From assembly GCA_031701365.1 (NCBI GenBank), contig GCA_031701365.1_4118.1: a stretch of DNA of 64,000 nt. The stretch is one strand, 5' to 3'. Positions 674 through 13,126 of this stretch are shown one piece after another. The position numbers and the translations under genes were made by a program. Origin of the DNA: Escherichia coli (lineage in GTDB: Bacteria > Pseudomonadota > Gammaproteobacteria > Enterobacterales > Enterobacteriaceae). The stretch's first letter is position 1; the number at the start of each line of letters is the position of its first letter. Under the pieces are notes generated by a model. The model was given only the letters and a program-made list of their open reading frames with translations. It was not told the origin of the DNA and did not search any database.

Positions 674-685
674 AAAAGATTAAAA

Positions 686-770: not shown

Positions 771-814
771 ATTATATAAGTATTCAGTACTGAAAACTAT
801 TTTATAAAAAGTAC

Positions 815-875
815 TTGCATTGTACTTAGAATCAAGTATAATGTTTTATATCGAGAGGGGGAAATGGTTCTCCCT
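815..875 (+). promoter_or_regulatory. early cassette P1: sigma70-type promoter + 5'UTR hairpin
   Basis: -35 TTGCAT 815-820, 16-nt spacer, -10 TATAAT 837-842, upstream AAAAAGTAC. Hairpin AGGGGGAA-ATGG-TTCTCCCT at 856-875. Confidence 0.7.
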
Positions 876-896
876 GGTACATTAAGGAATAAAATC

Positions 897-1118
897 ATGA
901 CTACGATGACTTGCGTTCACGCTTCAAATCTTCTGAATGATGCAGCATTTAAAGCAGGTGAAGAATATCAATGCTATCGGGATGAAAATAAAAAAGTTTT
1001 CGTCGTTGATGCTAACGGTTTCCATATTGAATTACAATCCGGCTTCACTGGTGTTGATGGTAAATCAGTATGGGGCGTACAGGACGATAACGGTACATAT
1101 CATTTTAAACGTAATTAA
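897..1118 (+). CDS. hypothetical small early protein (73 aa)
   Basis: Track ORF 864..1118 begins at an ATG inside the hairpin loop; trimmed to ATG 897 after AAGGAA SD. Confidence 0.7.
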   Translation: MTTMTCVHASNLLNDAAFKAGEEYQCYRDENKKVFVVDANGFHIELQSGFTGVDGKSVWGVQDDNGTYHFKRN

Positions 1119-1121
1119 GTA

Positions 1122-1180
1122 TTGACAAAGTATATCAGTACTGTATAATAGTTTACATCAAGGGGAGAATAGTTCTCCCC
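1122..1180 (+). promoter_or_regulatory. early cassette P2: promoter + 5'UTR hairpin
   Basis: -35 TTGACA 1122-1127, 16-nt spacer containing CAGTACTG, -10 TATAAT 1144-1149. Perfect hairpin GGGGAGAA-TAG-TTCTCCCC at 1162-1180. Confidence 0.75.
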
Positions 1181-1202
1181 ACCAATAAAAGGAAACAAAA
1201 TT

Positions 1203-1475
1203 ATGTCCAGCTACTCCGCTACTATGATTATTAAAGATATGAACGGTAATCCTACTTCTGCTGGTGGATCATTTGGTAACATTAACTTAGATGGTCGGTT
1301 ATCAATTGAATCAGCCATCAATGCCGCGAAAGAAGTTTTTAAGAATGAATGTACTGTAAGCAAGCTGGATTATATGGGCTTCGCTATCGAGAAAACTAAT
1401 CGTTTTGTGGACTACAAAAAACCACTGATGATCGATACTAACCTGAAAGCTAACGAAGTGGAATACTTATTATGA
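1203..1475 (+). CDS. hypothetical protein (90 aa)
   Basis: ATG after AAAGGAA SD, downstream of cassette P2. Confidence 0.75.
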   Translation: MSSYSATMIIKDMNGNPTSAGGSFGNINLDGRLSIESAINAAKEVFKNECTVSKLDYMGFAIEKTNRFVDYKKPLMIDTNLKANEVEYLL

Positions 1476-1663
1476 CAGTAGAAGAAGTTAAAAAAGTACT
1501 GGCAGTACTACGCTATCATAATCATTGTAAGGTGAAGAATGATCCTGATTATCTTGATTCATCGCTGGAAGAGGATACACTACAAGCAATAAGCCATATG
1601 CAAAAAATGCTTAAGCGTATGACCGAAAAGAATAGGCCGGACTATATAGGAAATAAAATTTAA
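1472..1663 (+). CDS. hypothetical protein (63 aa)
   Basis: ATGA start/stop overlap with the upstream gene (translational coupling). Confidence 0.7.
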   Translation: MTVEEVKKVLAVLRYHNHCKVKNDPDYLDSSLEEDTLQAISHMQKMLKRMTEKNRPDYIGNKI

Positions 1664-1670
1664 AAAGTAC

Positions 1671-1727
1671 TTGCATTGTAAGTAAAACAAAGTATAATGT
1701 TTTGCATAGGGGGAGATATCCTCCCCC
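1671..1727 (+). promoter_or_regulatory. early cassette P3: promoter + 5'UTR hairpin
   Basis: -35 TTGCAT 1671-1676, 16-nt spacer, -10 TATAAT 1693-1698. Hairpin GGGGGAG-ATATC-CTCCCCC at 1709-1727. Confidence 0.7.
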
Positions 1728-1746
1728 ACTAATAAGGAGTACTAAA

Positions 1747-1971
1747 ATGGCTAACTTTGATGAACTGATGCGGGAAGTAGCTACCCTGGCAGAAGAGAAG
1801 AAATCATTTGATTCTATCTATAACACCGCTTACAGTGATTCAGTACTGGCATGTACTCAGGATCAAAAAGATGAACTGATCGCCACCTATCATGAAGCAT
1901 GGAAGTATTACCGCCAATGGGAGAAAGAAGAAAGCGAGTCTACCATCAACGGCCTCAATAATCTAATCTAA
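1747..1971 (+). CDS. hypothetical protein (74 aa)
   Basis: Track ORF 1702 (non-ATG start upstream of the hairpin, reading through it) trimmed to ATG 1747 after AAGGAG SD. Confidence 0.75.
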   Translation: MANFDELMREVATLAEEKKSFDSIYNTAYSDSVLACTQDQKDELIATYHEAWKYYRQWEKEESESTINGLNNLI

Positions 1972-1981
1972 AGTTTTATTT

Positions 1982-2011
1982 CAGTACTATTATCATAGCG
2001 TGATAGTACTG
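1982..2011. repeat. inverted repeat CAGTACTAT-N12-ATAGTACTG
   Basis: 9-bp perfect arms at 1982-1990 and 2003-2011, each carrying AGTACT. Lies in the only early intergenic spacer lacking the standard promoter cassette. Confidence 0.6.
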
Positions 2012-2046
2012 TTGTGATAACTTTACTAACTACAAGGGGAAACATA

Positions 2047-2304
2047 ATGGAACAGTTTAAAACGTATCGGGTAAATCCAATCGCCACAGCCTACGTAGAA
2101 GACCATAAAACATTACCAGTACAGACACCAATCAAAGGCCGTATCTATCGTGCTATGCAGTGGAATAACGCCTATAATGGCTATAAAGCGGTATCCGCTG
2201 CAATGTACTTAGGGGATGGCGAATGGTTTGATCCAAATAATCCTGGTGCACTCGATAGTACTGAAAAAATGAAATGGGCCGACTATATCGAAGATATCTC
2301 ATAA
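2047..2304 (+). CDS. hypothetical protein (85 aa)
   Basis: Track ORF 2014 trimmed to ATG 2047 after AAGGGGA SD. Confidence 0.7.
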   Translation: MEQFKTYRVNPIATAYVEDHKTLPVQTPIKGRIYRAMQWNNAYNGYKAVSAAMYLGDGEWFDPNNPGALDSTEKMKWADYIEDIS

Positions 2305-2311
2305 AAACTAT

Positions 2312-2372
2312 TTGACAGTACTACAAGATAATGTATAATGTTTTACATAGAGCGGGGGAATAGTTCTCCCGC
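2312..2372 (+). promoter_or_regulatory. early cassette P4: promoter + 5'UTR hairpin
   Basis: -35 TTGACA 2312-2317, 16-nt spacer, -10 TATAAT 2334-2339. Hairpin GCGGGGGAA-TAG-TTCTCCCGC (one G.U) at 2352-2372. Confidence 0.75.
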
Positions 2373-2392
2373 ACCTTTAGGAGTAAAACATT

Positions 2393-2593
2393 ATGTCAAT
2401 CGCTAACGAATTGGTTGCAGTACTGAATGAAGCAAAAGCCAACTGCATCGATGTACAGATCAAAGAGCTTGGCAATGGCTTGATCGGCTGTACATGTTCA
2501 GTTCAAACGGCTACCGATTATCGGGAAGTGGAATCACTCGAATCACTGGTACGGTATATTAAAATCCTGGTAGAAGATTGGAGAATCATCTAA
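2393..2593 (+). CDS. hypothetical protein (66 aa)
   Basis: ATG after TAGGAG SD; terminator follows. Confidence 0.75.
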   Translation: MSIANELVAVLNEAKANCIDVQIKELGNGLIGCTCSVQTATDYREVESLESLVRYIKILVEDWRII

Positions 2594-2609
2594 CAAAAAA
2601 GAATAAAAA

Positions 2610-2640
2610 AAGGAGTTGACTTCGGTCCGCTCCTTTAGTA
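2610..2640 (+). terminator. rho-independent terminator-like hairpin
   Basis: Stem GGAGTTGAC/GTCCGCTCC (one mismatch, one G.U) with TTCG tetraloop, then TTT. Positional homolog of 686..715. Confidence 0.5.
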
Positions 2641-2665
2641 CTATATACGCATAGACAAAAACTAG

Positions 2666-2689
2666 CCCACAGGGTGCAGAGAAGTATCT
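2666..2689 (+). repeat. conserved intergenic box, copy 2
   Basis: CCCACAGGGTGCAGAGAAGTATCT; 19/24 identical to 747..770. Confidence 0.6.
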
Positions 2690-2766
2690 GTAAGATAGTT
2701 AATAACGGTGAGTAACTATCTGCTGGTGGATGTAATTCCAGTACTCAAAACTATTTCAAAAAAGTA

Positions 2767-2828
2767 TTGACAAAGTATAGCAGTACTGCAATAATGTATC
2801 TCGTAGGGCGGCAATGGTGCGACGGCCC
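2767..2828 (+). promoter_or_regulatory. early cassette P5: promoter + imperfect 5'UTR hairpin
   Basis: -35 TTGACA 2767-2772, 17-nt spacer with CAGTACTG, -10 AATAAT 2790-2795. GGGC...GCCC hairpin at 2806-2828 keeps the AATGG loop but has internal mismatches. Confidence 0.55.
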
Positions 2829-2848
2829 ACAAAGTTAGGAGCTTCATC

Positions 2849-3175
2849 ATGAGTACTTCAATCGCTATCGTTAAAGCTTTCATCCGTACCAATTTCGACC
2901 GCATTACTGTTGATGGTAATGATCGGGAAGTAGAATACTCTTTCATTGTTGCACAAACCGCAAACGGTGCACGCTATATCTTAAACGATAGTGAAGCTAA
3001 CCACTACTTCTATAATAAAGGATTACACTACATCCCTAGCGAAGTAGTCTACACTAAGATGAATAAGCTGGTAGACAAGATTAACGCTAAAGGTACTATC
3101 GATTTACAGTACTGGACCGAAACAGATCCAGAATACGGATCACATCGTTACCTGAATCCAGGTATTAAAATGTAA
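2849..3175 (+). CDS. hypothetical protein (108 aa)
   Basis: ATG after TAGGAG SD, downstream of cassette P5. Confidence 0.75.
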   Translation: MSTSIAIVKAFIRTNFDRITVDGNDREVEYSFIVAQTANGARYILNDSEANHYFYNKGLHYIPSEVVYTKMNKLVDKINAKGTIDLQYWTETDPEYGSHRYLNPGIKM

Positions 3176-3182
3176 AAAGTAC

Positions 3183-3244
3183 TTGCATAGTACTTAGAAT
3201 CAAGTATAATGTTTTACATAGAGAGGGGGAAATGGTTCTCCCTC
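3183..3244 (+). promoter_or_regulatory. early cassette P6: promoter + 5'UTR hairpin (near-duplicate of P1)
   Basis: -35 TTGCAT 3183-3188, 16-nt spacer, -10 TATAAT 3205-3210. Hairpin GAGGGGGAA-ATGG-TTCTCCCTC at 3223-3244. About 90% identical to 806-900 by eye. Confidence 0.75.
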
Positions 3245-3264
3245 CTAAATTAAGGAGTTTTATC

Positions 3265-3666
3265 ATGACCTTCTCAATCACTTCCTTCGCTGACGTTTTA
3301 GTACTGGCTCGGACTTTTGGTAAAGATGCACTGGAGTACGCTGTAAGTAATGGCACTCTCCAACCGGAACAATGCCGCATCATTGGAAACTGTAAACGTT
3401 GGGCGGTATCCAATACTATTGCACTAGAAAACTTCAACGATGGTAACAATGAGTATTCAGTTGATGCAGTATTCGAAGCCGTTGATCTTGGCGGTATCTA
3501 TAACACTAACCTAAATGATGTGCGTATCGTTCGCACGGGGTTCGGTGCTTATGATGTATCTATCCGTGAAGCTATGAACACCGGATACATTAGTAAGGAC
3601 TTACTTGCTCACATCATGCAGCTATGGACGGAACGTAACGAAGCACGCACTATCTTAGGACTATAA
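3265..3666 (+). CDS. hypothetical protein (133 aa)
   Basis: Track ORF 3232 starts at the hairpin-loop ATG; trimmed to ATG 3265 after AAGGAG SD. Confidence 0.75.
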   Translation: MTFSITSFADVLVLARTFGKDALEYAVSNGTLQPEQCRIIGNCKRWAVSNTIALENFNDGNNEYSVDAVFEAVDLGGIYNTNLNDVRIVRTGFGAYDVSIREAMNTGYISKDLLAHIMQLWTERNEARTILGL

Positions 3667-3690
3667 GCATTACACATCACCAAACATCAT

Positions 3691-3710
3691 AGGCCGCTCT
3701 CTAGCGGCCT
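3691..3710 (+). terminator. terminator-like hairpin (no strong U tract)
   Basis: Perfect stem AGGCCGCT/AGCGGCCT with loop CTCT, 25 nt after the stop. Confidence 0.45.
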
Positions 3711-3734
3711 TAACTATATCAGGAGGGCATACAT

Positions 3735-3944
3735 ATGTTCTATACAGTATACAGCGTTCTAGGTACGATTGCTGGCGTACATGATAACGTCGATGATGCT
3801 ATGCGTACAGTACTAACACAAGTCCCCCTCAAGCCTAAGACTGTTAAGCAGATGACAGCACGACTAACCAGGGCGGGCGATGGCGTGGAAGTATGGCAGG
3901 ACTACGGGGATACACAGATAATCGTTAGCGTAACGAAGGATTAA
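3735..3944 (+). CDS. hypothetical protein (69 aa)
   Basis: ATG after AGGAGGG SD. Confidence 0.7.
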   Translation: MFYTVYSVLGTIAGVHDNVDDAMRTVLTQVPLKPKTVKQMTARLTRAGDGVEVWQDYGDTQIIVSVTKD

Positions 3945-3972
3945 TGCGTAAAGGGATCTAGTACTGATTCAG

Positions 3973-4038
3973 AAAAAAGTCAAGGCGTTTTTAAAATTAT
4001 GCGTTAAAAAAATGCATAGGTAATCCCTTGACTTTTTT
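3973..4038. repeat. 13-bp inverted repeat AAAAAAGTCAAGG / CCTTGACTTTTTT
   Basis: Perfect arms at 3973-3985 and 4026-4038 with a 40-nt spacer. Embedded in the 250-bp non-coding spacer, which also has four TAAAGGG-type boxes and three ATGCGT motifs. Confidence 0.6.
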
Positions 4039-4135
4039 GAAATAAAAGGGATTGGACTATGGCAAAATGCGTAGGGGGCTAAAGGGCGGGTAACCTTAGC
4101 GACTTCGATAAAGGGGTATTACGAATAAAATGTTA

Positions 4136-4163
4136 TTGACTTTTTATACAATTCATATATTAT
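4136..4163 (+). promoter_or_regulatory. promoter of the family-A array
   Basis: -35 TTGACT 4136-4141, 16-nt spacer, -10 TATTAT 4158-4163. No other promoter-like site seen until ~9974. Confidence 0.55.
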
Positions 4164-4193
4164 ATGATTGATATTATTTTCAAGGGAGTCCCT

Positions 4194-4391
4194 ATGCGTA
4201 TTTTAACTCAAGCAGAACACCACGAAAGACTTATCAATAACATGGCTATGATAATGTATAAGTCACATGAACGTGGTATTGCCTATAAGCGTGAATTAAT
4301 TATGGCACTATTCATTGGAACTAACTTTCAGGAAAGGTATGTCAAGGATTGGATTTGGTATTTAATTGAAGATGTAACGAGTAAACTATGA
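4194..4391 (+). CDS. family-A small protein (GTNYQ motif), function unknown
   Basis: Track ORF 4164 trimmed to ATG 4194 after AAGGGAG SD; motif LFIGTNFQERYV; C-terminus SKL. Confidence 0.8.
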   Translation: MRILTQAEHHERLINNMAMIMYKSHERGIAYKRELIMALFIGTNFQERYVKDWIWYLIEDVTSKL

Positions 4392-4588
4392 AAATGCGTA
4401 AATTAACCGAAAAAGAATATCAATCACTGTTACGTAAAAACTACGTAAAGATTTACAATACAGACACACACGTAGAACGAATGGAGTTATACCTTTTGAT
4501 TACATTGGGAACTAACTATCAGGATGCATGGGTGATTCAATATATGGATGCATTGAAAAATGAAATATTGTCCACGAGGAAACAATGA
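4388..4588 (+). CDS. family-A small protein, function unknown
   Basis: ATGA overlap; motif LITLGTNYQDAWV. Confidence 0.8.
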   Translation: MKMRKLTEKEYQSLLRKNYVKIYNTDTHVERMELYLLITLGTNYQDAWVIQYMDALKNEILSTRKQ

Positions 4589-4794
4589 AAACTATAACAC
4601 GAACCCAATCATTCGGACTTATCTTGAAATACATGGACTTAATGGTGGATATCAGCAAAGACCTGCCTAAAACTGCAATTGAAGTTGCAAGAGCAGAGAT
4701 CCGCATGTTGGCTGTACTGAACACAAACCATCAGGAAGAGTATGTTGACGATTGGATTCGATTTTTAATAGAAGATATTAAGAGTAAACTATGA
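4585..4794 (+). CDS. family-A small protein, function unknown
   Basis: ATGA overlap; motif LAVLNTNHQEEYV; C-terminus KSKL. Confidence 0.8.
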   Translation: MKTITRTQSFGLILKYMDLMVDISKDLPKTAIEVARAEIRMLAVLNTNHQEEYVDDWIRFLIEDIKSKL

Positions 4795-5003
4795 TTATAT
4801 TAACACCTGAAGAATATAAGAAACGTTTTAAATCTGTCCAGGCTGAAATATTACTTATATACCTTTCAAATGCAGATCTTAACTTATCAAGGGTAATGGA
4901 GAAGGATTTACTTATGGGTGCATTTTTGGATACAGACTTTCAGGAGTATTATGTAGGAGAATACTTTATTGCACTTCAGAACCACATTAAGAGTAAACTA
5001 TGA
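4791..5003 (+). CDS. family-A small protein, function unknown
   Basis: ATGA overlap; motif GAFLDTDFQEYYV; C-terminus KSKL. Confidence 0.8.
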   Translation: MIILTPEEYKKRFKSVQAEILLIYLSNADLNLSRVMEKDLLMGAFLDTDFQEYYVGEYFIALQNHIKSKL

Positions 5004-5215
5004 TTATTCTAGAAAAATCATATCAATATACTGAACGCATCGCTGCCAGACAACTTGAAATCCTCATAATATACGAAGAGACTTCTGATTTAAACTTAGC
5101 CGAGGTATTGGAAAATGAAATACTTTTGGGTGCATTCTTGGGAACAGACTATCAGGAGTATTATGAGGAAAAGTATTTGTCATCTCTTGAGAAATACGTC
5201 AGGAGCAAACTATGA
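5000..5215 (+). CDS. family-A small protein, function unknown
   Basis: ATGA overlap; motif GAFLGTDYQEYYE. Confidence 0.8.
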   Translation: MIILEKSYQYTERIAARQLEILIIYEETSDLNLAEVLENEILLGAFLGTDYQEYYEEKYLSSLEKYVRSKL

Positions 5216-5439
5216 AACATTTAAGTAATATAGAGAAGAATAAAATTATCATTGCTGTAATAAACAAATATTTTACACTTCCACAAAAAGAATGTTTATC
5301 TATAAGGGAACACAGGATAAACACCACCGAGATTCGCATGTTGGCTGTACTGGGGACTAACTTCCAAGAAGGCTATGTTCATGAGCACATCGTTGCACTC
5401 ACTAATTACATAATGGACAAATGTAATGAACATCATTAA
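5212..5439 (+). CDS. family-A small protein, function unknown
   Basis: ATGA overlap; motif LAVLGTNFQEGYV. Confidence 0.8.
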   Translation: MKHLSNIEKNKIIIAVINKYFTLPQKECLSIREHRINTTEIRMLAVLGTNFQEGYVHEHIVALTNYIMDKCNEHH

Positions 5440-5650
5440 TAACTTTGAATACGAGGCCCGTGCTAAGAGTGCCAGAAAAAAAGAGAACACCATTTACTTC
5501 ACTATGATGTACTTACAATGGACTGAGATTGAAGAAAAGGTTGCTGAAGTATGGATGTTGGAATTCATGGGGACGCAGTATCAGAATAGGTTTGCGGGTG
5601 AGTATATCAATGTTCTTATGAAACAAATAGAAAGAAAGGAAAAGAACTAA
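5426..5650 (+). CDS. family-A small protein, function unknown
   Basis: Motif LEFMGTQYQNRFA. Confidence 0.8.
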   Translation: MNIINNFEYEARAKSARKKENTIYFTMMYLQWTEIEEKVAEVWMLEFMGTQYQNRFAGEYINVLMKQIERKEKN

Positions 5651-5808
5651 TGGTTTTCATTAACATATCTGACCAACTCGATACTAAACTAAAAGTCGAG
5701 AAGAGTGAGGGATGGATGCTGTACTTTCTTGGAACTTCTCATCAGAATTTTTATATCCATGAACACATAGTTGCACTCACAAATCTAATAAGGGATAAAT
5801 GCAAATGA
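5650..5808 (+). CDS. family-A small protein (52 aa, below ORF-track cutoff)
   Basis: Read by hand: TAATG overlap at 5650, MVFINISDQLDTKLKVEKSEGWMLYFLGTSHQNFYIHEHIVALTNLIRDKCK, stop TGA 5806-5808. Confidence 0.7.
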   Translation: MVFINISDQLDTKLKVEKSEGWMLYFLGTSHQNFYIHEHIVALTNLIRDKCK

Positions 5809-6062
5809 AACACTTAACACAAGATGAATATTCACTTAGAATTCGAAAGCTCACCCCAGAAGCAAGAGTAATCTACGATGACGATGCACTTTCATGGAAC
5901 GAGATGAAAGTTAAAGTTCATGAGCTATGGTTGCTGTACTTTGTGGGAACCCAATATCAAGAGAAATATTGTACCGATTATCTTGAACAACTAATGGATC
6001 TTATACAGATAAAACTAAATGAACGAATTGTGGAAAAATATGAAAACTTTATCAAGCACTGA
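5805..6062 (+). CDS. family-A small protein, function unknown
   Basis: ATGA overlap at 5805 (track start 5799 also possible); motif LYFVGTQYQEKYC. C-terminus extended past the usual IKL end by a 1-nt difference at ~6015. Confidence 0.75.
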   Translation: MKHLTQDEYSLRIRKLTPEARVIYDDDALSWNEMKVKVHELWLLYFVGTQYQEKYCTDYLEQLMDLIQIKLNERIVEKYENFIKH

Positions 6063-6291
6063 GTATCAAACTGCCCTCTTCTCCCTTCTAAACACTCTCC
6101 GCACGAACAATAAACTTTATAATTCCCGTGAAGCTGATATTGTCAACGGTGAACTTTATCTTATGAAATTCATTGGAACAAACTATCAAGATCTGTTCAT
6201 TCAACGATACCTGGCAGCATTGAGAAACGAAATATCAGATAAAACCCGCCAAGCCAGAAGAGAATGGAAGAAACAATGCGACAAAGACTAA
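6040..6291 (+). CDS. family-A small protein, function unknown
   Basis: Family-typical N-terminus MKTLSSTEY at 6040 (track start 6019 possible); motif MKFIGTNYQDLFI. Confidence 0.7.
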   Translation: MKTLSSTEYQTALFSLLNTLRTNNKLYNSREADIVNGELYLMKFIGTNYQDLFIQRYLAALRNEISDKTRQARREWKKQCDKD

Positions 6292-6527
6292 ATCACAAAA
6301 TGTATTGTAAACTATTACAGAATCTGGGACAAAAACACTATGATACAGTATCTGAAATATTACCCTATGATATCATGCGTTTAATTCATAGTGAGGCAGA
6401 GATGCTTGTACTGATGACAGGCACTGATAAAACAGCAATTACCAAATCTATAGATATGTTCATCGATGCACACTGCCAACACATTAGAACCGAGATATGG
6501 AGACGTGAGAATGAAAATCCTGACTGA
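6264..6527 (+). CDS. family-A small protein, divergent copy
   Basis: Motif position reads LVLMTGTDKTAIT; alternative start 6276 (MRQRL). Confidence 0.65.
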   Translation: MEETMRQRLNHKMYCKLLQNLGQKHYDTVSEILPYDIMRLIHSEAEMLVLMTGTDKTAITKSIDMFIDAHCQHIRTEIWRRENENPD

Positions 6528-6726
6528 GCATGAGTATTACAATAGGTTAAGAACGATACAAGGAAAAGTCTCGTGGACTTTTTTAGATAATTCTATTGCA
6601 GAAGCGGACCGATGTGTTATAATAGCTGAAATGAAGCTATTACTCTTCATTGGGACAAACTATCAAAGTATCTACATAGACGCATGGTTAAGCAGCTTAC
6701 GTCTGAAGTCGGTGAGTTTAAAATGA
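6511..6726 (+). CDS. family-A small protein, function unknown
   Basis: Track ORF 6466 trimmed to ATG 6511 (MKILTEHEY) after GGAGA SD; motif LLFIGTNYQSIYI. Confidence 0.75.
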   Translation: MKILTEHEYYNRLRTIQGKVSWTFLDNSIAEADRCVIIAEMKLLLFIGTNYQSIYIDAWLSSLRLKSVSLK

Positions 6727-6941
6727 GAAAATTAATAGGTTTCGAATATGTTAAGCTTCTACAAACCTGTGGAATCAGAAGGAGAATGATTCAAAAGGAT
6801 AAAAGAATTGCCGAAGAACGAAAGTATATAATGATAACTGAACTTTATGTCTTAACACTCTTAGGCACAAACTATCAACACACTTATGTAGACCTATGGA
6901 TCGATGCACTACAGAAAGAGGTTAAAAGTAAATGCAAATGA
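6723..6941 (+). CDS. family-A small protein, function unknown
   Basis: Track ORF 6684 trimmed to the ATGA overlap at 6723 (MRKLIGFEY); motif LTLLGTNYQHTYV. Confidence 0.75.
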   Translation: MRKLIGFEYVKLLQTCGIRRRMIQKDKRIAEERKYIMITELYVLTLLGTNYQHTYVDLWIDALQKEVKSKCK

Positions 6942-7150
6942 TTAATTTAAGTAAAGACGAATTTTATGTTATACTGGCGAAAACTTATCCAGCACGTAAG
7001 GCCGTTTATGATAGTCACATTATTGAACCCTCAAAGAAGTTGATTTTAGTAAATGAGATAAAGATGCTTTCAGTCTTAGGAACAAACTATCAAGAGAATG
7101 CGGTACTGATGTTAATTGATGCCCTCCAGCGAGAGGTTAAACGTAAATGA
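6938..7150 (+). CDS. family-A small protein, function unknown
   Basis: ATGA overlap at 6938 (track start 6932 possible); motif LSVLGTNYQENAV. Confidence 0.75.
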   Translation: MINLSKDEFYVILAKTYPARKAVYDSHIIEPSKKLILVNEIKMLSVLGTNYQENAVLMLIDALQREVKRK

Positions 7151-7392
7151 AAATGATTAATTTAACTTACCATGAATATCAAAAACGTTTAAATGCATCC
7201 AGAGATATAAGGATTCAAATATTCAATAACAAAAGATTGAAGCCTGATATCAGGAAAATCAAAATCATAGAAGCCGTGTTGTGCAACTTCCTAGGGACTA
7301 ACTATCAGGAAGGTAAGGTAGAAAACTATCTTATAGAACTCATGAATAGTATTGAAAATAAATGCGAGGATAATGATCATGAAAATGATTAA
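7147..7392 (+). CDS. family-A small protein, function unknown
   Basis: ATGA overlap; motif CNFLGTNYQEGKV. Confidence 0.8.
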   Translation: MKMINLTYHEYQKRLNASRDIRIQIFNNKRLKPDIRKIKIIEAVLCNFLGTNYQEGKVENYLIELMNSIENKCEDNDHEND

Positions 7393-7642
7393 TTTAAGTA
7401 AAGATGAATATACCGAGCGTATGACAAAAAATACTCTTAAACGTAATACAATCTATCACAACCCAGAAATTCAACACAGTAAGAAAATGATTATGATACG
7501 TGAGTTAAAGATGGGTGTATTCTTAGGAACAAACTATCAAGAGATGGAAGTAAATCGCTTAATCGCGGAGTTACTAATGGAAATCAAAGGTAAGCTGTAC
7601 TTTTATCAAATGACCCGTCCACTAAGGTGTACTGATCGATGA
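7379..7642 (+). CDS. family-A small protein with C-terminal extension
   Basis: Start ATGAAAATGATTAATTTAA at 7379 repeats the start of the 7147 gene (track start 7352); motif GVFLGTNYQEMEV. Confidence 0.7.
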   Translation: MKMINLSKDEYTERMTKNTLKRNTIYHNPEIQHSKKMIMIRELKMGVFLGTNYQEMEVNRLIAELLMEIKGKLYFYQMTRPLRCTDR

Positions 7643-7881
7643 ATATTGTGAATAACATCAGATTAGCAGAAAGATTTGATAGAATTGGGGAAGCACTGAG
7701 AAGATACGATAAAGAATATGGTCATTTGAGCTTTTCTATAGAAAAGAGATATGAACTTGAAGCAGAGTTTAAAATGCAGAGTCTCTTAGGCACACAGTAT
7801 CAAAACCAATATATTCAAACTTGGATTGATTGTTTAATCCAGACAATTTACGTAAGGAACATTAAATGCAAAATGAAATGA
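7639..7881 (+). CDS. family-A small protein, function unknown
   Basis: ATGA overlap; motif QSLLGTQYQNQYI. Confidence 0.8.
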   Translation: MNIVNNIRLAERFDRIGEALRRYDKEYGHLSFSIEKRYELEAEFKMQSLLGTQYQNQYIQTWIDCLIQTIYVRNIKCKMK

Positions 7882-8111
7882 TATACTTAACATATAATGA
7901 ATACGTCGAGAGATTAGTTAGTGCCAAGAGATATACAAATCAACTTCCTCACAACCCAAACCAAACCCCAGAGGAAAAGAATGCGGAAGCTCTATTCCAA
8001 GCACTACCATACCTTCTTGGAACTGATAGGCAGGAGTATCACGTTGAACGTATAATTAAATCTCTTAAAATCACTATTAAGGAAAAGATACATGAAGCAC
8101 TTGACAGATGA
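7878..8111 (+). CDS. family-A small protein, function unknown
   Basis: ATGA overlap at 7878 (track start 7866 possible); motif PYLLGTDRQEYHV. Confidence 0.75.
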   Translation: MIYLTYNEYVERLVSAKRYTNQLPHNPNQTPEEKNAEALFQALPYLLGTDRQEYHVERIIKSLKITIKEKIHEALDR

Positions 8112-8322
8112 TGAACATGGGCTTATAGTAATGGATGTAATCAACATCGAATACAAAAAGTTGATACGCTACCGTTGTTATGAAGATAAGCAACTAGTTC
8201 TAGCAGAACAGAAGTTGTTTCGACTCTTAAACACAAACTACCAAGCACAATACGAAGAATCGTATATGTACCTTTTGGCGAGGAAAGCAAAAAGAGATTA
8301 TGAAAATTTTAAGCAAAGGTGA
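8092..8322 (+). CDS. family-A small protein, function unknown
   Basis: AAGGA SD; motif FRLLNTNYQAQYE. Confidence 0.75.
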   Translation: MKHLTDDEHGLIVMDVINIEYKKLIRYRCYEDKQLVLAEQKLFRLLNTNYQAQYEESYMYLLARKAKRDYENFKQR

Positions 8323-8521
8323 TTCAGTAATATTACTTATAGAGAGTTCAAGTAAATTCTTAAACATAACACTGTCTGATATAGATGAAGATGATAAAGA
8401 AGTACTGAGAGCAGATTTAAGAGTACTGTTGCATCTCGGAACAAACCTACAAGAAGAATATGTAGAGTACTACATTGATGAACTTAAAGAATCAGTACTG
8501 AGAAGATGCAAATGCGAATGA
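8300..8521 (+). CDS. family-A small protein, function unknown
   Basis: Motif LLHLGTNLQEEYV. Confidence 0.75.
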   Translation: MKILSKGDSVILLIESSSKFLNITLSDIDEDDKEVLRADLRVLLHLGTNLQEEYVEYYIDELKESVLRRCKCE

Positions 8522-8733
8522 TTACCGACGAAGAATACCTAACAATTATAAATGGATTGTTTTTGAAGTTGTTTGTTATTAACACATCAGATATACCAGA
8601 TATGGATAAAATTATTAAGAGAAATGAAATCTATGTTCTAGCTACCCTGGGAACTAACTATCAAGAATACGATATTAATGATTATATTAATACACTTAAA
8701 CGAGCGATTGAACTAAAATGCCAAAACCACTAG
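8518..8733 (+). CDS. family-A small protein, function unknown
   Basis: ATGA overlap at 8518 (track start 8506 possible); motif LATLGTNYQEYDI. Confidence 0.75.
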   Translation: MITDEEYLTIINGLFLKLFVINTSDIPDMDKIIKRNEIYVLATLGTNYQEYDINDYINTLKRAIELKCQNH

Positions 8734-8933
8734 GAACAGCAGAATACATTGAACTCATGGGATTACACTTCTCATCCTTTCAGAAACTTATGCGAGAATC
8801 AAAGAATGATTTAGAATATACCATCAGAGGTTCAGATTTAAGAATGCTTCTCACCCTAGACACAGATTCCCAAGAGCGTTTTGTCAATGAGCACATTAGA
8901 GCACTTTTAATGGAAATTAAAAGTAAACTATGA
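8718..8933 (+). CDS. family-A small protein, function unknown
   Basis: Motif LLTLDTDSQERFV; C-terminus KSKL. Confidence 0.75.
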   Translation: MPKPLGTAEYIELMGLHFSSFQKLMRESKNDLEYTIRGSDLRMLLTLDTDSQERFVNEHIRALLMEIKSKL

Positions 8934-9145
8934 AGATAATATCAAATCAAGAGTACTTGGCACTATTCAGAAAGAATAATCACAAATTTATGGCACTTGA
9001 TTCAAGAACTGATATAAGTGAACTTGAAAAAAATCTTTTGCGTTCAGAGATGATAGTACTGACACTCTTAGGAACACAGCATCAAGAAAGAACTGTTAAT
9101 TCACACATAGAAATACTTAAGAAGCTTATACAGGAAAAGTTATGA
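8930..9145 (+). CDS. family-A small protein, function unknown
   Basis: ATGA overlap; motif LTLLGTQHQERTV. Confidence 0.8.
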   Translation: MKIISNQEYLALFRKNNHKFMALDSRTDISELEKNLLRSEMIVLTLLGTQHQERTVNSHIEILKKLIQEKL

Positions 9146-9363
9146 GAATCATAACACAACAAGATATTCTTAAGTTCACAAGGGTTCATGCATCTGAATT
9201 TGATGCTATATTATCAAAAAGTTACAACAACCCTTATACAGAAGATGTACACTACAATGAATTATGGATGTATATACTTTTAGGTACAGATCATCAAGAG
9301 CAAGCCGTACAGAGGTATTTGAGTGCTTTAAGTACTGCTACTGCTAATGGAGTATGTGTTTAA
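9142..9363 (+). CDS. family-A small protein, function unknown
   Basis: ATGA overlap; motif YILLGTDHQEQAV. Confidence 0.8.
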   Translation: MRIITQQDILKFTRVHASEFDAILSKSYNNPYTEDVHYNELWMYILLGTDHQEQAVQRYLSALSTATANGVCV

Positions 9364-9364
9364 T

Positions 9365-9607
9365 ATGAAAGTACTGACAGAATTAGAAATGTATCATAGA
9401 TTTAATAAGTACTATCATTTACTTAAACCTATACAGAGGATTAAGTGTCCCTTTGTAGTGAAACAGGTATTAATTTATGAGCATAAGTTATTTGTATCAT
9501 TAGGTACGAATGAACAAGAGTATTATTTGAAGTTGTACTTGATTACATTAATAGATTTAATTCACTATAAAACCAAACAAGCTAATAAAGAGAAATATGA
9601 AAACTAA
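9365..9607 (+). CDS. family-A small protein, function unknown
   Basis: Track ORF 9347 trimmed to ATG 9365 (MKVLTELE), just after the upstream stop; motif FVSLGTNEQEYYL. Confidence 0.75.
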   Translation: MKVLTELEMYHRFNKYYHLLKPIQRIKCPFVVKQVLIYEHKLFVSLGTNEQEYYLKLYLITLIDLIHYKTKQANKEKYEN

Positions 9608-9941
9608 TATACAACTCAAGGTATATAAATCATTTGAACATACATATATCAAAAGTAGTCTATGTAGAGATGTAATGGATTACAAGGGTAAGCCATTCAC
9701 AATTACCTATGATTCTTATGTTAGTGATTTATATATATCATTTGTTAATTACGAAAATAAAATATACAAGCACGTTGATATTAAAGATTTAAGTACTTTA
9801 TCACCAGAGGAATACTTTCAGGAATCATTAGTATGGGATTTAGAGTTCCCTATGCCATTAGTACATAAGATGATAGTACTAATGAAAGAATCTAAACAGG
9901 AGCCTAATAGTGGTTATGAAGAACACATTATTGAGTATTAA
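9597..9941 (+). CDS. family-B protein (short form), function unknown
   Basis: Core motif SPEEYFQESLVWD; 114 aa. Confidence 0.8.
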   Translation: MKTNIQLKVYKSFEHTYIKSSLCRDVMDYKGKPFTITYDSYVSDLYISFVNYENKIYKHVDIKDLSTLSPEEYFQESLVWDLEFPMPLVHKMIVLMKESKQEPNSGYEEHIIEY

Positions 9942-9973
9942 GAGTTCTGATAGTACTGAGAGTACAAATGTTC

Positions 9974-10002
9974 TTGACAGTACTTTTCATTACTGATATA
10001 GT
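9974..10002 (+). promoter_or_regulatory. sigma70-type promoter with extended -10
   Basis: -35 TTGACA 9974-9979, 17-nt spacer, TGa + TATAGT 9997-10002. Confidence 0.6.
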
Positions 10003-10031
10003 GCACCAACGTTAATCATAGGGTACAGATT

Positions 10032-10277
10032 ATGTTAAAATTTTTAAATTTCCTTATCGTCTTGTGTATTGTTCTTGGAATTGCACCGTTTGTATTAGCG
10101 TATCTGGATTCAGATGAAATGCAGAAGATGAATTGCACAAAGACAGGACAGAGTAGAGAAGAGACGGTTATGATGCCTGTAACGGTTATTGTGAATAACA
10201 TACCAATTACGAACATGATTCCTACCCTAACGACAACGTACCAGTACTCTTGTACAGATGGAGAGAGGTGGAGATGA
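10032..10277 (+). CDS. small membrane or secreted protein (81 aa)
   Basis: Hydrophobic N-terminus MLKFLNFLIVLCIVLGIAPFVLAYL; first gene after the 9974 promoter. Confidence 0.6.
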   Translation: MLKFLNFLIVLCIVLGIAPFVLAYLDSDEMQKMNCTKTGQSREETVMMPVTVIVNNIPITNMIPTLTTTYQYSCTDGERWR

Positions 10278-10594
10278 AATTTAATATAGCAAAAACATCT
10301 AATATATGTATATTTGGTTATGCCGAAGAGTTGGGTGATATTGACATTCTTTTGTACAAAAAGGATGGTGTTATGCATTTCAAGTACCAGGATGAAGAGG
10401 CAGACAATTATCCTTTACCTAATTTAGTACAAATGCAGGAAGAGGAATTATTCCAGTACAGCTTAGTATATGACATTGATATTTGCACGATGCCAGTACT
10501 AATTAATATTCAAAAAGTGATGCTCGATGTGTTTGATAGGCTAATACAAGGCACACAAGGAAGAACCATATATGTCAATGTACAAGACAATTAA
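10274..10594 (+). CDS. family-B protein (short form)
   Basis: Track ORF 10250 trimmed to the ATGA overlap at 10274 after GGTGGAG SD; motif QEEELFQYSLVYD. Confidence 0.8.
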   Translation: MKFNIAKTSNICIFGYAEELGDIDILLYKKDGVMHFKYQDEEADNYPLPNLVQMQEEELFQYSLVYDIDICTMPVLINIQKVMLDVFDRLIQGTQGRTIYVNVQDN

Positions 10595-10787
10595 TCAAGA
10601 ATGGAAGACCCAAAAGTACAGGGAATTCAGTACTAGTTTAACAAAAGATGCATTGAATTTAAAAAGAACAGAGTTTGATATGTTTATTTTTCTTGGAACA
10701 CGTTCCCAGGAACAATACATTCATTATTATATAAGTTCATTGCGAACGGAGATCGTATGCAAAACACAGGGTATTATAAAAAAGTAA
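10572..10787 (+). CDS. family-A small protein embedded in the B array
   Basis: Motif FIFLGTRSQEQYI. Confidence 0.75.
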   Translation: MSMYKTINQEWKTQKYREFSTSLTKDALNLKRTEFDMFIFLGTRSQEQYIHYYISSLRTEIVCKTQGIIKK

Positions 10788-11023
10788 ACCAATATTTGTA
10801 CGCTACAAAGTACAGGGATTTTTGTTTAAAGGGTGGTGATGAAGATTTTTCTTTGCGATTATCAGAATTTAATCTGTTATTTTATCTTGGTACATCGGAA
10901 CAAGAAGAAATGGCACAGAAATTTATCAAGCACCTTGAACAAAAAATTCATATGCAAATTTTGATGCTTAAGGTACATAATGAGATAAACAAATATGAAC
11001 CCAACAATAGTACAGGATCTTAA
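10757..11023 (+). CDS. family-A small protein embedded in the B array
   Basis: Motif LFYLGTSEQEEMA. Confidence 0.75.
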   Translation: MQNTGYYKKVNQYLYATKYRDFCLKGGDEDFSLRLSEFNLLFYLGTSEQEEMAQKFIKHLEQKIHMQILMLKVHNEINKYEPNNSTGS

Positions 11024-11384
11024 ACAAGTAATATTCCTTTTGAATACAAGAAGTGAAATGTATACAGAGTTTAAAGAGATTAATGCATTTTATCAGAATT
11101 TTGTAATTCAAGAGTTCAGTGATTTAATTACAGATGCATTATTTGAATTATCGGAAAAATACAAAGGAACAGAGTTCAGTGTTAAGAATGTATTACGTTC
11201 TTTATCAAAGCGTATAATAAAATTAGATCATTTTACATTTGACAATAAAGATTTATTCAGTCACAATCCAAGTACAGCTTTATATTTTATTCCTGATTCA
11301 GACAAAAATCATCCTATTCATTACGGATGGATTTTGTCGTACATAGTACAAGGAAAGGAGTATCCTATTAAATGGAACGATTAG
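10995..11384 (+). CDS. hypothetical protein (129 aa)
   Basis: Long ORF with no family motif. Confidence 0.65.
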   Translation: MNPTIVQDLKQVIFLLNTRSEMYTEFKEINAFYQNFVIQEFSDLITDALFELSEKYKGTEFSVKNVLRSLSKRIIKLDHFTFDNKDLFSHNPSTALYFIPDSDKNHPIHYGWILSYIVQGKEYPIKWND

Positions 11385-11533
11385 GGCGATTAGATTATTA
11401 CACAATTAATACAAATTATTTGTTGCGTAATATAAAATCCGATTACAAAATATGGATAAAGAACAGAGATAGTATGTGTTATGAATTTTATTTAGATTAT
11501 GCCATCAAACGCTTTTTAAGAGAAGAACATTAA
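11372..11533 (+). CDS. hypothetical mini-protein (53 aa, below track cutoff)
   Basis: Read by hand: ATG 11372 after AAGGAAAGGAG SD; MERLGRLDYYTINTNYLLRN...; TAATG overlap with the next ORF at 11533. Confidence 0.45.
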   Translation: MERLGRLDYYTINTNYLLRNIKSDYKIWIKNRDSMCYEFYLDYAIKRFLREEH

Positions 11534-11733
11534 TGCACACACCGCACAAAGAGCACACAGAGCACAAAAATACAAAAACGATAAATGTTTTAAATGATTC
11601 TTTATTGGTGAGTATAAATTTATATTATAAAATTCATTTAAATGGTGGTATTGAAAATTTTAGTTATTATTTGAGTACAATATCGCAAGAGCATTTAATA
11701 TACCAAGATCATTTATTGCACCCGAATCCATAA
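11533..11733 (+). CDS. hypothetical protein (66 aa)
   Basis: TAATG coupling to the upstream mini-ORF; His/Lys/Thr-rich N-terminus. Confidence 0.5.
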   Translation: MHTPHKEHTEHKNTKTINVLNDSLLVSINLYYKIHLNGGIENFSYYLSTISQEHLIYQDHLLHPNP

Positions 11734-11741
11734 GGCGAATT

Positions 11742-12287
11742 ATGAATGAGATAGAATTATTAGCACACAAGATTAGTACAATAATGCTTATCCTAAATAA
11801 CAACCATCCTATATCGCAGATAGATGGAATCCTGAGTCAGAGGACAGGTGGTAGTTTATATTTGACATTAACAGAGGTTATCGCAAGGAATTACATTGAT
11901 ATTGAAATCGAGAACAGTGATGCATCAGGAAAGGTTGATGTAGGTGCATTAATCAGTTCAAATCCAGTATCAGCATCCCCATTGACCAAAGGTGTTAGTA
12001 CAGGATTCGAAGGGTATTTGTGGTACAATACCAATGATGATTATTTTATATATCAGCATTCCAATACAAATTATGATGAAGACAAATTTCAGTTCATAGA
12101 CCCTTATGATGAAGCTGAAGTATTTCAAAAATCATTAATCACAAAACCGCATGAGATGATGTATCTAATGTTATTCAGTACAATGCATTTGAATCCATTA
12201 ATTAAAGGTTTAAAATTTTATATTCAATTGAAATTAGTCCATGTAGTTTATGATTTATTAATGCAAGGATATAGTTATGAAGTATAA
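11742..12287 (+). CDS. family-B protein (long form)
   Basis: Motif DEAEVFQKSLITK; 181 aa. Confidence 0.8.
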   Translation: MNEIELLAHKISTIMLILNNNHPISQIDGILSQRTGGSLYLTLTEVIARNYIDIEIENSDASGKVDVGALISSNPVSASPLTKGVSTGFEGYLWYNTNDDYFIYQHSNTNYDEDKFQFIDPYDEAEVFQKSLITKPHEMMYLMLFSTMHLNPLIKGLKFYIQLKLVHVVYDLLMQGYSYEV

Positions 12288-12588
12288 AATGATGTATACC
12301 CCAGATATGATTTATGTTGAATTAGAAGATGATGACGATGGGTGGAATTTGATTTATTCAAGAAGTTCAGGTTGGTACATGGCACATTTAAATGATTCGA
12401 TAGTTACAGATTATTTTGTAGATTTCAATACATTATCCGATGAAGAATTGTTCCAACAGCAATTAGTAATTGACACGGGTGGTTATGATGTTTTATTATT
12501 AAAAAAGATACAGAAAGCTGTTATTGATTTTAAGCCCAAGATGTTGCAAAGGAAATATTATGACCTCGAAGTACCGTACCAGCAATGA
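12277..12588 (+). CDS. family-B protein (short form)
   Basis: AAGGA SD; motif SDEELFQQQLVID. Confidence 0.8.
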   Translation: MKYKMMYTPDMIYVELEDDDDGWNLIYSRSSGWYMAHLNDSIVTDYFVDFNTLSDEELFQQQLVIDTGGYDVLLLKKIQKAVIDFKPKMLQRKYYDLEVPYQQ

Positions 12589-13126
12589 AATTCAGTACAC
12601 CTACGCTAATGCAATCATTATGGGACAAAAGTTAGCTTGTATTGTTGCAGCCTTATATAATGCCCAGAAATATCACAAGCGTCATTTCCACAAATGTATT
12701 GGTATTATTCCATCGAAGTACAATACATATATTGCGTGCACGAGTCATTTTGATAAACGATTCAATACACCTGATACCCCAAATGCCAGTAGTGTTATTG
12801 GTCTTTTGGATTTCGCACCTGGTGCTGTTATTGGAAAGAATGATTTAGAGTACGCATGGTATAATAAAAATGCACCGTTAGTAATGGTAAAATATGATAC
12901 AGAAACGAACAAAACAATAGAGTACAATACATATAAATCAGAGGAAGAATTTTTCCAAGGTTCATTGCTTGTGCCAGTGCGTTTGTTGTTTTATAATGTC
13001 CTTATTAGTACAGTACACAATAGTCCATTACACAAGAATCACAAAATTAATTTCAATTTTTGTGCTTATGCGATTGATGGTGTGTATGAGTGTTTAATGG
13101 AGGTATTGAGTTATGAAGCTGAATAA
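12560..13126 (+). CDS. family-B protein (long form)
   Basis: Track ORF 12524 trimmed to ATG 12560 after AAGGA SD; motif SEEEFFQGSLLVP. Confidence 0.75.
   Translation: MTSKYRTSNEIQYTYANAIIMGQKLACIVAALYNAQKYHKRHFHKCIGIIPSKYNTYIACTSHFDKRFNTPDTPNASSVIGLLDFAPGAVIGKNDLEYAWYNKNAPLVMVKYDTETNKTIEYNTYKSEEEFFQGSLLVPVRLLFYNVLISTVHNSPLHKNHKINFNFCAYAIDGVYECLMEVLSYEAE

Follow-up and report, generated by a model that had tools for sequence, protein, structure and literature searches.

A spacer-free array of 25 small paralogous genes beside the terminal repeat of an Asteriusvirus jumbo coliphage

The 64,000-nucleotide stretch of DNA analyzed here, from contig GCA_031701365.1_4118.1 and referred to as the window, derives from an Asteriusvirus jumbo coliphage of the 121Q/PBECO4/G17 group. 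At positions 4194 to 9607, it carries 25 consecutive + strand open reading frames (ORFs) of 52 to 87 aa that belong to a single paralogous family, family A, and follow one another essentially without spacers. The array makes up ~1.5% of the genome, and its family is the largest paralog family of the window. Our tentative reading, held with slightly less than even confidence, is that the array encodes a set of diversified small proteins that are made early and bind host or defense proteins. An earlier note on this DNA, made from the letters alone (the original prediction), had proposed small protein-binding modulators with a variable specificity region, a proposal that is compatible with our reading and points in the same direction.

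The array lies at a genome landmark. In phage vB_Ec-M-J, the direct terminal repeat (DTR) is annotated at 1 to 21,525 and the array begins at 21,624; the end of this repeat (position 20096 of the compared segment) aligns to window position ~4096. The DTR of phage fEgEco12 measures 20,993 bp, as determined by PhageTerm and restriction digests (PMC13070987). The first array gene of that phage starts at 21,091, at the same offset from the DTR end as in vB_Ec-M-J. Because these two relatives have mapped ends, we place the end of the left DTR at window position ~4096, which makes the array the first transcription unit past the left terminal repeat. From the end of this ~21-kb repeat, a promoter-like site is 40 nt away and the first array start codon 98 nt away. 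Positions 4000 to 10000 are matched by 36 phage records at 80 to 95% nucleotide identity (Escherichia and Salmonella phages, including 121Q, G17, Sharanji, PBECO4, phAPEC6, and others), and all genes under these matches are annotated as “hypothetical protein.”

Family membership and operon layout

A profile hidden Markov model (HMM) built from the 25 array ORFs matches all of them (E 7.7e-13 to 4.4e-28), a recovery that is circular. Among the 937 six-frame ORFs of the window, it matches exactly four others, at 10572, 10757, 23066, and 23262 (E 4e-13 to 2e-6, all on the + strand), and these are the four additional copies that the original prediction had listed. An independent profile, PHROG 4148, matches 10 of 10 tested members (E 4.1e-9 to 4.5e-24), covering positions ~1 to 72 of 74 in the case of in-array units. 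The predicted count of 25 consecutive small genes is thus borne out by the ORF listing, the HMM, and PHROG 4148. The 52-aa copy proposed at 5650 to 5808 (unit 8) is likewise genuine: it scores E 1e-17, is annotated in G17, and is 94 to 96% identical in G17, PBECO4, and SD-15_S21 only, with a ratio of nonsynonymous to synonymous substitution rates (dN/dS) of 0.24.

The array and the predicted features preceding it are as follows, with E values from the family HMM:

4022–4096, + strand: right edge of the left DTR, directly upstream of the array; inferred boundary ~4095–4096
4136–4163, + strand: predicted sigma70-like promoter before the array, TTGACT-16-TATTAT, 10 of 12 consensus positions matched
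4194–4391, + strand: unit 1, 65 aa, E 1.5e-20; annotated as 121Q gp319
4388–4588, + strand: unit 2, 66 aa, E 3.2e-20; alternative start 4394; ATGA overlap with unit 1
4585–4794, + strand: unit 3, 69 aa, E 5.3e-22; motif G replaced by N
4791–5003, + strand: unit 4, 70 aa, E 8.6e-24
5000–5215, + strand: unit 5, 71 aa, E 1.6e-19; most acidic, isoelectric point (pI) 4.4
5212–5439, + strand: unit 6, 75 aa, E 7.8e-26
5426–5650, + strand: unit 7, 74 aa, E 1.7e-23; restricted to some relatives
5650–5808, + strand: unit 8, 52 aa, E 9.7e-18; truncated, lacking most of helices 1 and 2
5799–6062, + strand: unit 9, 87 aa, E 4.4e-28; alternative start 5805
6040–6291, + strand: unit 10, 83 aa, E 1.6e-21; start 6040 backed by Shine-Dalgarno pairing
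6276–6527, + strand: unit 11, 83 aa, E 3.5e-18; outlier with G-T-D-K-T and a 6-residue insertion, lacking the Q
6511–6726, + strand: unit 12, 71 aa, E 1.6e-23; two allele classes
6723–6941, + strand: unit 13, 72 aa, E 6.2e-27
6932–7150, + strand: unit 14, 72 aa, E 5.8e-24; alternative start 6938
7147–7392, + strand: unit 15, 81 aa, E 2.2e-26; alternative start 7153
7379–7642, + strand: unit 16, 87 aa, E 2e-26; alternative starts 7373 and 7385; Shine-Dalgarno pairing −5.9 kcal/mol
7639–7881, + strand: unit 17, 80 aa, E 4.9e-20; two allele classes
7866–8111, + strand: unit 18, 81 aa, E 7.9e-23
8092–8322, + strand: unit 19, 76 aa, E 7.7e-13; conserved “anchor” unit
8300–8521, + strand: unit 20, 73 aa, E 5.9e-23
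8512–8733, + strand: unit 21, 73 aa, E 7.5e-26; alternative start 8506
8718–8933, + strand: unit 22, 71 aa, E 3.3e-21; motif G replaced by D
8930–9145, + strand: unit 23, 71 aa, E 3.7e-24
9142–9363, + strand: unit 24, 73 aa, E 3.6e-23
9365–9607, + strand: unit 25, the last of the array, 80 aa, E 7.1e-22; start 9365 backed by Shine-Dalgarno pairing

The paralogs are highly diverged, with pairwise identities of 14 to 49% (mean, 29%). The L-G-T-N-Y-Q core that had been described as invariant proves to be degenerate: within the array, T is present in 25/25 units, Q in 24/25, G in 21/25, L in 19/25, N in 14/25, and Y in 13/25, so that only T is invariant and the exact string occurs in 6/25; no column is invariant across all 29 copies. 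The proposed terminal signatures were also too strict, as M-[KR]-x-[LI]-T fits just 9 of the 25 N termini and the C-terminal endings KSKL and KL occur in 3/25 and 6/25 units, respectively. Predicted pI values range from 4.4 to 9.8 (8 or higher in 13 of 29 copies), and net charges range from −7 to +7. By inspection of the sequences, no family member has a hydrophobic segment of membrane-spanning length, and the proteins are predicted to be cytoplasmic and not part of the virion.

All 24 junctions overlap or leave a gap of at most 1 nt, the layout of a coupled operon: ten are 4-nt ATGA overlaps, one is TAATG, one is a 1-nt gap, and twelve are overlaps of 10 to 23 nt. ATGA and TAATG junctions do exist, as predicted, but they account for about half of the total rather than for most of it. 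The genes annotated independently in G17 are arranged in this way too, no gap exceeding 29 nt. This arrangement suggests that ribosomes may be coupled from gene to gene across the array. The longest-ORF listing shows an unbroken + strand run from 4164 to 9607, in which the longest ORFs over-extend several units; Shine-Dalgarno pairing favors the family-consistent starts at 4194, 6040, 6276, 6511, 6723, and 9365. The start at 4194 has the strongest Shine-Dalgarno site of the array (−7.9 kcal/mol, versus +2.6 at 4164), and pairing of −4 kcal/mol or stronger precedes 16 of the 25 starts versus 12.5% of internal ATGs. Pairing strength across units spans −2.2 to −7.9 kcal/mol, and the proposal that all products are made at similar stoichiometry is therefore unsupported. 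In several units, the codons for K-S-K-L-stop read AAGAGTAAACTATGA, which gives a weak Shine-Dalgarno sequence, spacing, and the next ATG; the conserved KSKL C terminus may thus be partly a nucleotide-level signal.

The promoter at 4136 to 4163 is kept in five of six relatives, with the −35 element conserved together with a −10-like element in 121Q, G17, phAPEC6, vB_Ec-M-J, and CMSTMSU. The original prediction had called it the single promoter of the array; the site stands, but its singleness is not demonstrable, given that the array itself contains promoter-like sites (5814, 8027, and 8101), at a frequency not above that of shuffled sequence. One promoter serving the whole array is plausible. 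The first true intergenic gap follows the gene at 9597 to 9941, which is not a member of family A, and carries TTGACA-17-TATAGT at 9974 to 10002. Sigma70-like sites are abundant in the adjoining DTR (103 versus 66.6 ± 7.3 expected in the vB_Ec-M-J DTR, 1 to 20000 of the compared segment), including eleven perfect TTGACA-16/17-TATAAT sites on the + strand and many copies of TTGCAA-16-TATAAT. Work on the related phage PA5oct showed that it relies on host RNA polymerase for transcription and that it expresses most of its DTR genes early (PMC7318152). By its position and promoter type, the array is probably expressed early as well.

The gene that closes the spacer-free block and the dispersed family-A copies are as follows:

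9597–9941, + strand: 114-aa gene outside family A, 11-nt overlap with unit 25; belongs to a separate 7-member paralog family
10572–10787, + strand: dispersed family-A copy, 71 aa, E 4.1e-13; PHROG 4148 E 4e-9
10757–11023, + strand: dispersed family-A copy, 88 aa, E 1.8e-6
23066–23284, + strand: dispersed family-A copy, 72 aa, E 4.3e-7; G-S in place of G-T; 97% identical in vB_Ec-M-J
23262–23453, + strand: dispersed family-A copy, 63 aa, E 1e-11

Variation of the array among relatives

We compared 11 genomes, including the window, and counted contiguous array units in each. Array size varies from 23 (121Q) through 25 (window), 26, 27, and 28 to as many as 29 units (G17 and PBECO4). Every one of the 25 reading frames of the window is intact, and the frames are conserved across the 10 other genomes. 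Synteny is kept, and the window array is mosaic: it has exactly the 121Q versions of units 1, 4, 12, and 13, and its units 7 to 9 and 14 match those of G17 and PBECO4 at 96 to 100% identity. Close counterparts (94 to 100%) of units 7 and 8 are found in just three of the ten comparison genomes. Unit 7 is 99 to 100% identical in G17, PBECO4, and SD-15_S21, 62% identical in 121Q, and at most 36% identical in the other six. Units 12, 13, and 17 occur as discrete alleles that are 38 to 71% identical. Unit 12 is 100% identical in 121Q versus 55 to 59% in nine other genomes, and unit 17 is 99 to 100% identical in five genomes (identical in vB_Ec-M-J) and 38 to 41% identical in five others, including the same slot of G17 and 121Q. 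Flanking genes outside the family are more uniform, mostly 74 to 100% identical.

Units have also been added and reordered. G17 and vB_Ec-M-J carry extra tandem copies of the unit 18 type, and units 4 and 5 stand in the opposite order in G17, PBECO4, and phAPEC6 from that in the window, 121Q, and vB_Ec-M-J (4791 to 5215 versus 3778 to 4216 of the compared segment). Because both units begin with MIIL and end with KSKL, the DNA at their junctions is nearly identical (ATTAAGAGTAAACTATGATTAT), and this near identity could have mediated the exchange of order. In the CMSTMSU record (MH494197.1, labeled “UNVERIFIED”), the HMM matches 35 short ORF fragments in place of an intact array, a pattern that probably reflects frameshift sequencing errors and not biology.

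Pooled over orthologs, dN/dS is 0.37 to 0.40 in five genome comparisons, versus 0.23 to 0.27 for 12 flanking small genes, which indicates that the units are real genes under purifying selection, somewhat less constrained than their neighbors. The original prediction had assigned specificity to a variable half of the proteins. This division is not seen among orthologs, in which dN/dS is alike in the middle region (0.37), helix 3 (0.41), and helix 4 (0.42). The G-T-x-x-Q loop alone is clearly under tighter constraint (0.18), and the C-terminal tails reach 0.89. Adjacent units average 29.4% identity and are no more alike than random pairs (permutation p = 0.36). Recent tandem amplification of the “genomic accordion” type is ruled out by this result together with the maximum identity of 49%.

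Unit 19 behaves differently from the rest. It coincides with a near-invariant nucleotide island at 8083 to 8322 (~240 nt) across the genus, synonymous sites included, with 26 to 30 invariant columns per 30-column bin versus 9 to 16 in the flanks. At 95% nucleotide identity or higher, unit 19 is found in 31 of 34 phage records versus 4 of 34 for unit 13. An RNA-level cause was considered and found no support, as folding z-scores were −0.9 and −1.3 and there was no Rfam match. A promoter-like TTGACA-17-TATAGT lies inside unit 19 at 8101 to 8129.

Predicted fold, database searches, and distribution

With an alignment of 48 family members, AlphaFold2 was used to model two units singly, units 13 and 19, which are 21% identical. 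Both models are confident. Unit 13 has a predicted local distance difference test score (pLDDT) of 96.5 and a predicted template modeling score (pTM) of 0.81, with helices at residues 6 to 15, 17 to 25, 31 to 45, and 52 to 71; unit 19 has a pLDDT of 95.9 and a pTM of 0.80, with helices at 6 to 22, 30 to 44, and 51 to 75. The two share one topology, a predicted small three- or four-helix bundle, in which a beta-bridge joins residue 2 to the motif Thr in the short connection of the last two helices. Together with membership by HMM and PHROG 4148, these helix bundles uphold the proposal of one paralogous family of small helical proteins.

Column statistics reveal a conserved hydrophobic stripe (L4, L13, L36, M43, L44, L47, V56, Y59/I60, L63, and I67) and a conserved polar cluster at one end (E8/Y9, E40, G48, T49, Q52, and E53); in the last helix, conserved columns are mostly hydrophobic with i, i+3/4 spacing. 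The surface outside the conserved scaffold positions differs among units. In the models, the stripe, E40, and the G-T-x-x-Q-E connection look structural, that is, they appear to hold the scaffold together. Judging from the secondary-structure string, G would end helix 3, T-x-x-Q-E would cap the last helix, and the N-terminal M-K-x-L-T strand would dock there, and such docking at the motif Thr connection would account for the co-conservation of the N-terminal motif and “LGTNYQ.” Alternatively, the polar cluster could be a shared functional site.

PHROG 4148, annotated with “unknown function,” is the only family match, accompanied by weaker matches to PHROG 28039. No Pfam-A (48 members) or NCBIfam model scored above its gathering threshold (best, 12 to 17 bits versus cutoffs of at least 22 bits), profile searches of PDB sequences gave no significant match (E < 1e-3), and PADLOC-DB gave none at E ≤ 0.1 for three members and five neighboring proteins. 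The family is therefore not a named domain, in keeping with the original prediction, which had not recognized it as one. Foldseek against the PDB returned nothing below E = 3 and no specific fold match; of the known anti-defense proteins, Acb2/Vs.4 appeared, only as a nonsignificant match (E 7.7, template modeling score 0.51). Against viral models, the structural relatives were exclusively Asteriusvirus proteins. A helix-turn-helix (HTH) regulator of the GerE/LuxR type, suggested by the pattern LT..E...LGT..QE....I..KL, was ruled out, as no HTH emerged from profile or fold searches.

When 1.84 billion representative proteins were searched exhaustively with the family profile, 99 clusters at 50% identity were recovered, all but one of 52 to 122 aa. 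Of ten weaker clusters that were traced to their source, five came from Asteriusvirus-type (~350 kb) or Klebsiella Rak2-like phages and five from short metagenome contigs. The family is confined to Rak2-like jumbo phages. The Klebsiella phage RaK2 has at least 12 family-A copies in clusters of two or three and no single array, from which it follows that the family is older than the split of the E. coli and Klebsiella lineages (Asteriusvirus and Alcyoneusvirus) and that the long array is an Asteriusvirus feature. The RaK2 clusters are located as follows:

19879–20532, 23808–24158, 30144–30611, 33638–34199, 35817–36412, and 37760–37996: RaK2 family-A clusters, positions within segment 225000–274000

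Two RaK2 members share a C-terminal extension of ~55 aa (...Y.KF.F.V.........E..E.A..F.K.NNY...). Two natural fusions were found. P0152 (269 aa; phages UB and EC.P1, 10062 to 10871 of the compared segment) joins a family-A domain to a 200-aa domain, and the latter resembles RaK2 ORF380 (40% identity), a stand-alone protein of unknown function without a Pfam match. P0001 (154 aa, from a metagenome contig) joins two adjacent array units, and its homologs all align to its second half only. Fusion and Klebsiella-phage relatives match the PHROG 4148 profile as well.

The virion proteome of phAPEC6, determined by mass spectrometry, comprises 62 proteins (PMC7247149, Table 1). None of them is an array product (gp467c to gp489c), and that table has no entry between gp347 and gp549 (PMC7247149). 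In the available portions of the literature on 121Q, PBECO4, phAPEC6, Sharanji, fEgEco12, CBB, RaK2, PA5oct, and jumbo-phage comparative genomics, we came across no account of either the family or its array. With its members already public as hypothetical proteins and as a PHROG lacking a functional label, family A adds a structurally unassigned case to the known lineage-specific multigene families of large viruses.

Several features of the surroundings deserve mention. At least five further paralog families occur in the window, with 7, 8, 3, 2, and 2 members (9597 to 9941, 10274 to 10594, 18091 to 19180, and 24602 to 25651; 19190 to 22555 and 26728 to 28438; 44461 to 45870; 11742 to 13126). 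The 7-member family adjoins family-A copies, as one member closes the array operon and another precedes the pair at 10572 and 10757. The tested representatives of the neighboring families had no Pfam or PADLOC match, and two upstream terminal-repeat genes had no Pfam match. The terminal repeat itself (vB_Ec-M-J DTR; window 1 to 4096) is crowded with ~53 small genes, each of which has a near-perfect sigma70 promoter in front of it. A 38-nt element (AAAGGGATTGACTCNGGTCAGTCCCTTTGCTATTATAT) at window positions 685 to 722 forms a 12-bp hairpin with a −35-like TTGACT in the stem and TATTAT after it. This is its single copy in the window; the vB_Ec-M-J DTR has four (8924, 12582, 15857, and 18613, one of them a variant). 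Between early genes, the element could serve as terminator and promoter in one. The final ~150 nt of the DTR (3945 to 4096) contain an inverted repeat, AATCCCTT...AAGGGATT (4022 to 4029 and 4046 to 4053), that embeds TTGACT, and copies of a TGCGTA/ATGCGT motif at 3945, 3996, 4014, and 4070; these might have a role in the genome terminus or in regulation.

Possible functions and comparable systems

We prefer the binder reading because of the nonvirion status of the products, the DTR-adjacent position, the confident helical scaffold with structural-looking conserved residues, the wide pI range, the variation in copy number, and the cassette-like exchange of alleles, and further because of the lineage restriction and the evidence that each unit is kept by selection. 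In the proposed mechanism, host RNA polymerase would transcribe the block early from the sigma70-like promoter at 4136. Overlapping stop and start codons would hand ribosomes from gene to gene, with the C-terminal codons AAGAGTAAACTATGA of several units doubling as the next Shine-Dalgarno sequence and start. Each unit would then work independently as a small binder, with a host protein of its own to block or redirect, and the most plausible targets would be components of host takeover or anti-phage defense. Diversity of the array would be kept as units are gained, lost, and reordered and as recombination between phages circulating together replaces whole units with distant alleles.

Several points weigh against this reading. 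There is no regional excess of amino acid change (dN/dS is ~0.4 throughout) and so no codon-level signature of an arms race, and the expansion is old rather than a recent adaptive amplification, as the maximum identity of 49% and the dissimilarity of neighbors (p = 0.36) indicate. The near invariance of unit 19 across the genus misfits a simple diversifying model. Furthermore, early expression is argued from promoter type, position, and analogy to PA5oct, whose data come from another genus; the Foldseek searches covered the PDB and viral models, so that a distant structural relative may have escaped; and the phAPEC6 virion proteome may miss 8-kDa proteins.

A bolder version of the binder reading, which we consider unlikely, is a repertoire shuffled by recombination, in which one mini-scaffold presents 23 to 29 binding surfaces. 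Gene junctions and the G-T-N-Y-Q-E codons would serve as joints for cassette swaps between co-infecting phages, generating a population-shared combinatorial library of inhibitors against polymorphic host defenses, and unit 19 would be a fixed member directed at an invariant host target.

Comparably improbable, in our view, is that the units bind nucleic acids and adjust phage or host gene expression, as small transcription factors or as RNA-binding proteins. The proteins are small and helical, 13 of 29 copies have a pI of 8 or higher, and the G-T motif between two helices superficially resembles the turn of an HTH; in the available part of a jumbo-phage survey, moreover, an expanded family of ~35 zinc-ribbon proteins in phage G is proposed to consist of transcription factors (PMC7824862). 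However, the searches found no HTH-like fold, acidic members are present, and the pI span of 4.4 to 9.8 makes it less likely that all units share an electrostatic function such as binding or mimicking DNA.

We give still less weight to a defined hetero-oligomer or polymer, such as an intracellular scaffold, into which the units would assemble together with translational coupling setting the subunit ratios. Spacer-free, overlapping genes would suit such a complex, the conserved end (N terminus and G-T-x-x-Q loop) could be a shared interface, and P0001 is a natural fusion of two units. Yet a copy number of 23 to 29, with units absent, swapped, or replaced by 40% identical alleles in close relatives, is unlike a fixed complex. 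The RaK2 copies are scattered in clusters of two or three, the monomer models are confident and self-contained (pTM 0.8), the products are not in the phAPEC6 virion proteome, and Shine-Dalgarno strengths are very unequal.

Two further explanations seem to us just as hard to credit. The array could act in conflict between phages, as an immunity-like or exclusion array against toxins or effectors of competitors or as a set of superinfection exclusion factors; mosaic alleles imply frequent co-infection and recombination among Asteriusviruses, and arrays of orphan immunity genes resemble diversified small-protein arrays with cassette exchange. That the array is instead largely dispensable baggage without specific targets, an old duplication block under weak selection or a translated spacer, would fit the moderately low dN/dS (~0.4), the nearly neutral C-terminal tails (0.89), and the ready loss and gain of units but not the 25 intact frames conserved across ten other genomes, an origin of the family before the Asteriusvirus/Alcyoneusvirus split, the maintained Shine-Dalgarno sites, or the 99 to 100% conservation of some units across the genus.

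Comparable systems share single aspects with the array. The MGF110, MGF360, and MGF505 families of African swine fever virus (ASFV) and the Bcl-2-like and ankyrin families of poxviruses each diversify a small scaffold near a genome terminus, vary in copy number among isolates, and block host immunity. The comparison is an analogy only, as there is no kinship in sequence or structure, the ASFV and poxvirus genes are monocistronic whereas the array is operonic, and hosts and genome biology differ. Among phages, the host-takeover module in the terminal redundancy of SPO1 and the pre-early region of T5 are comparable terminal blocks of many small, functionally uncharacterized genes in one orientation with strong host-type promoters; unlike the single-family array, they consist mostly of unrelated genes, each with its own promoter. 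The early genes of the PA5oct DTR are likewise many, small, of unknown function, in one orientation, driven by strong host-type promoters, and at a genome end. They too are mostly unrelated and have a promoter each, whereas here one family is repeated 25 times without spacers behind one recognizable promoter just outside the repeat. PHROG 4148 is the family itself, matched end to end, but its entry carries neither a function nor a structure nor a description of a tandem array. The ~35-copy zinc-ribbon family of Bacillus phage G, as presented in the available part of its description (Iyer et al. 2021, PMC7824862), resembles family A in being a single small domain in tens of copies, confined to one jumbo-phage lineage, with a guessed function; family A, by contrast, is helical and lacks zinc ligands. 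In a term search of the available text of the same survey, family A does not come up, and 121Q is named only for virion fibers (PMC7824862).

The array stands out by its size, gap-free operon layout, position at the DTR edge, and cassette-like mosaicism, and it occupies a region in which genes for host takeover would be expected. Therapeutic use of Rak2/121Q-group jumbo phages is being developed, although over 80% of their genes lack a known function. Should the array be dispensable, it would be a candidate for removal in phage engineering. A shuffled repertoire would give phages an equivalent of variable gene families for immune evasion. If the units do inhibit host or defense proteins, the array would provide two dozen or more ready small binders on a confidently predicted 70-residue scaffold and a natural experiment in the diversification and exchange of a repertoire.

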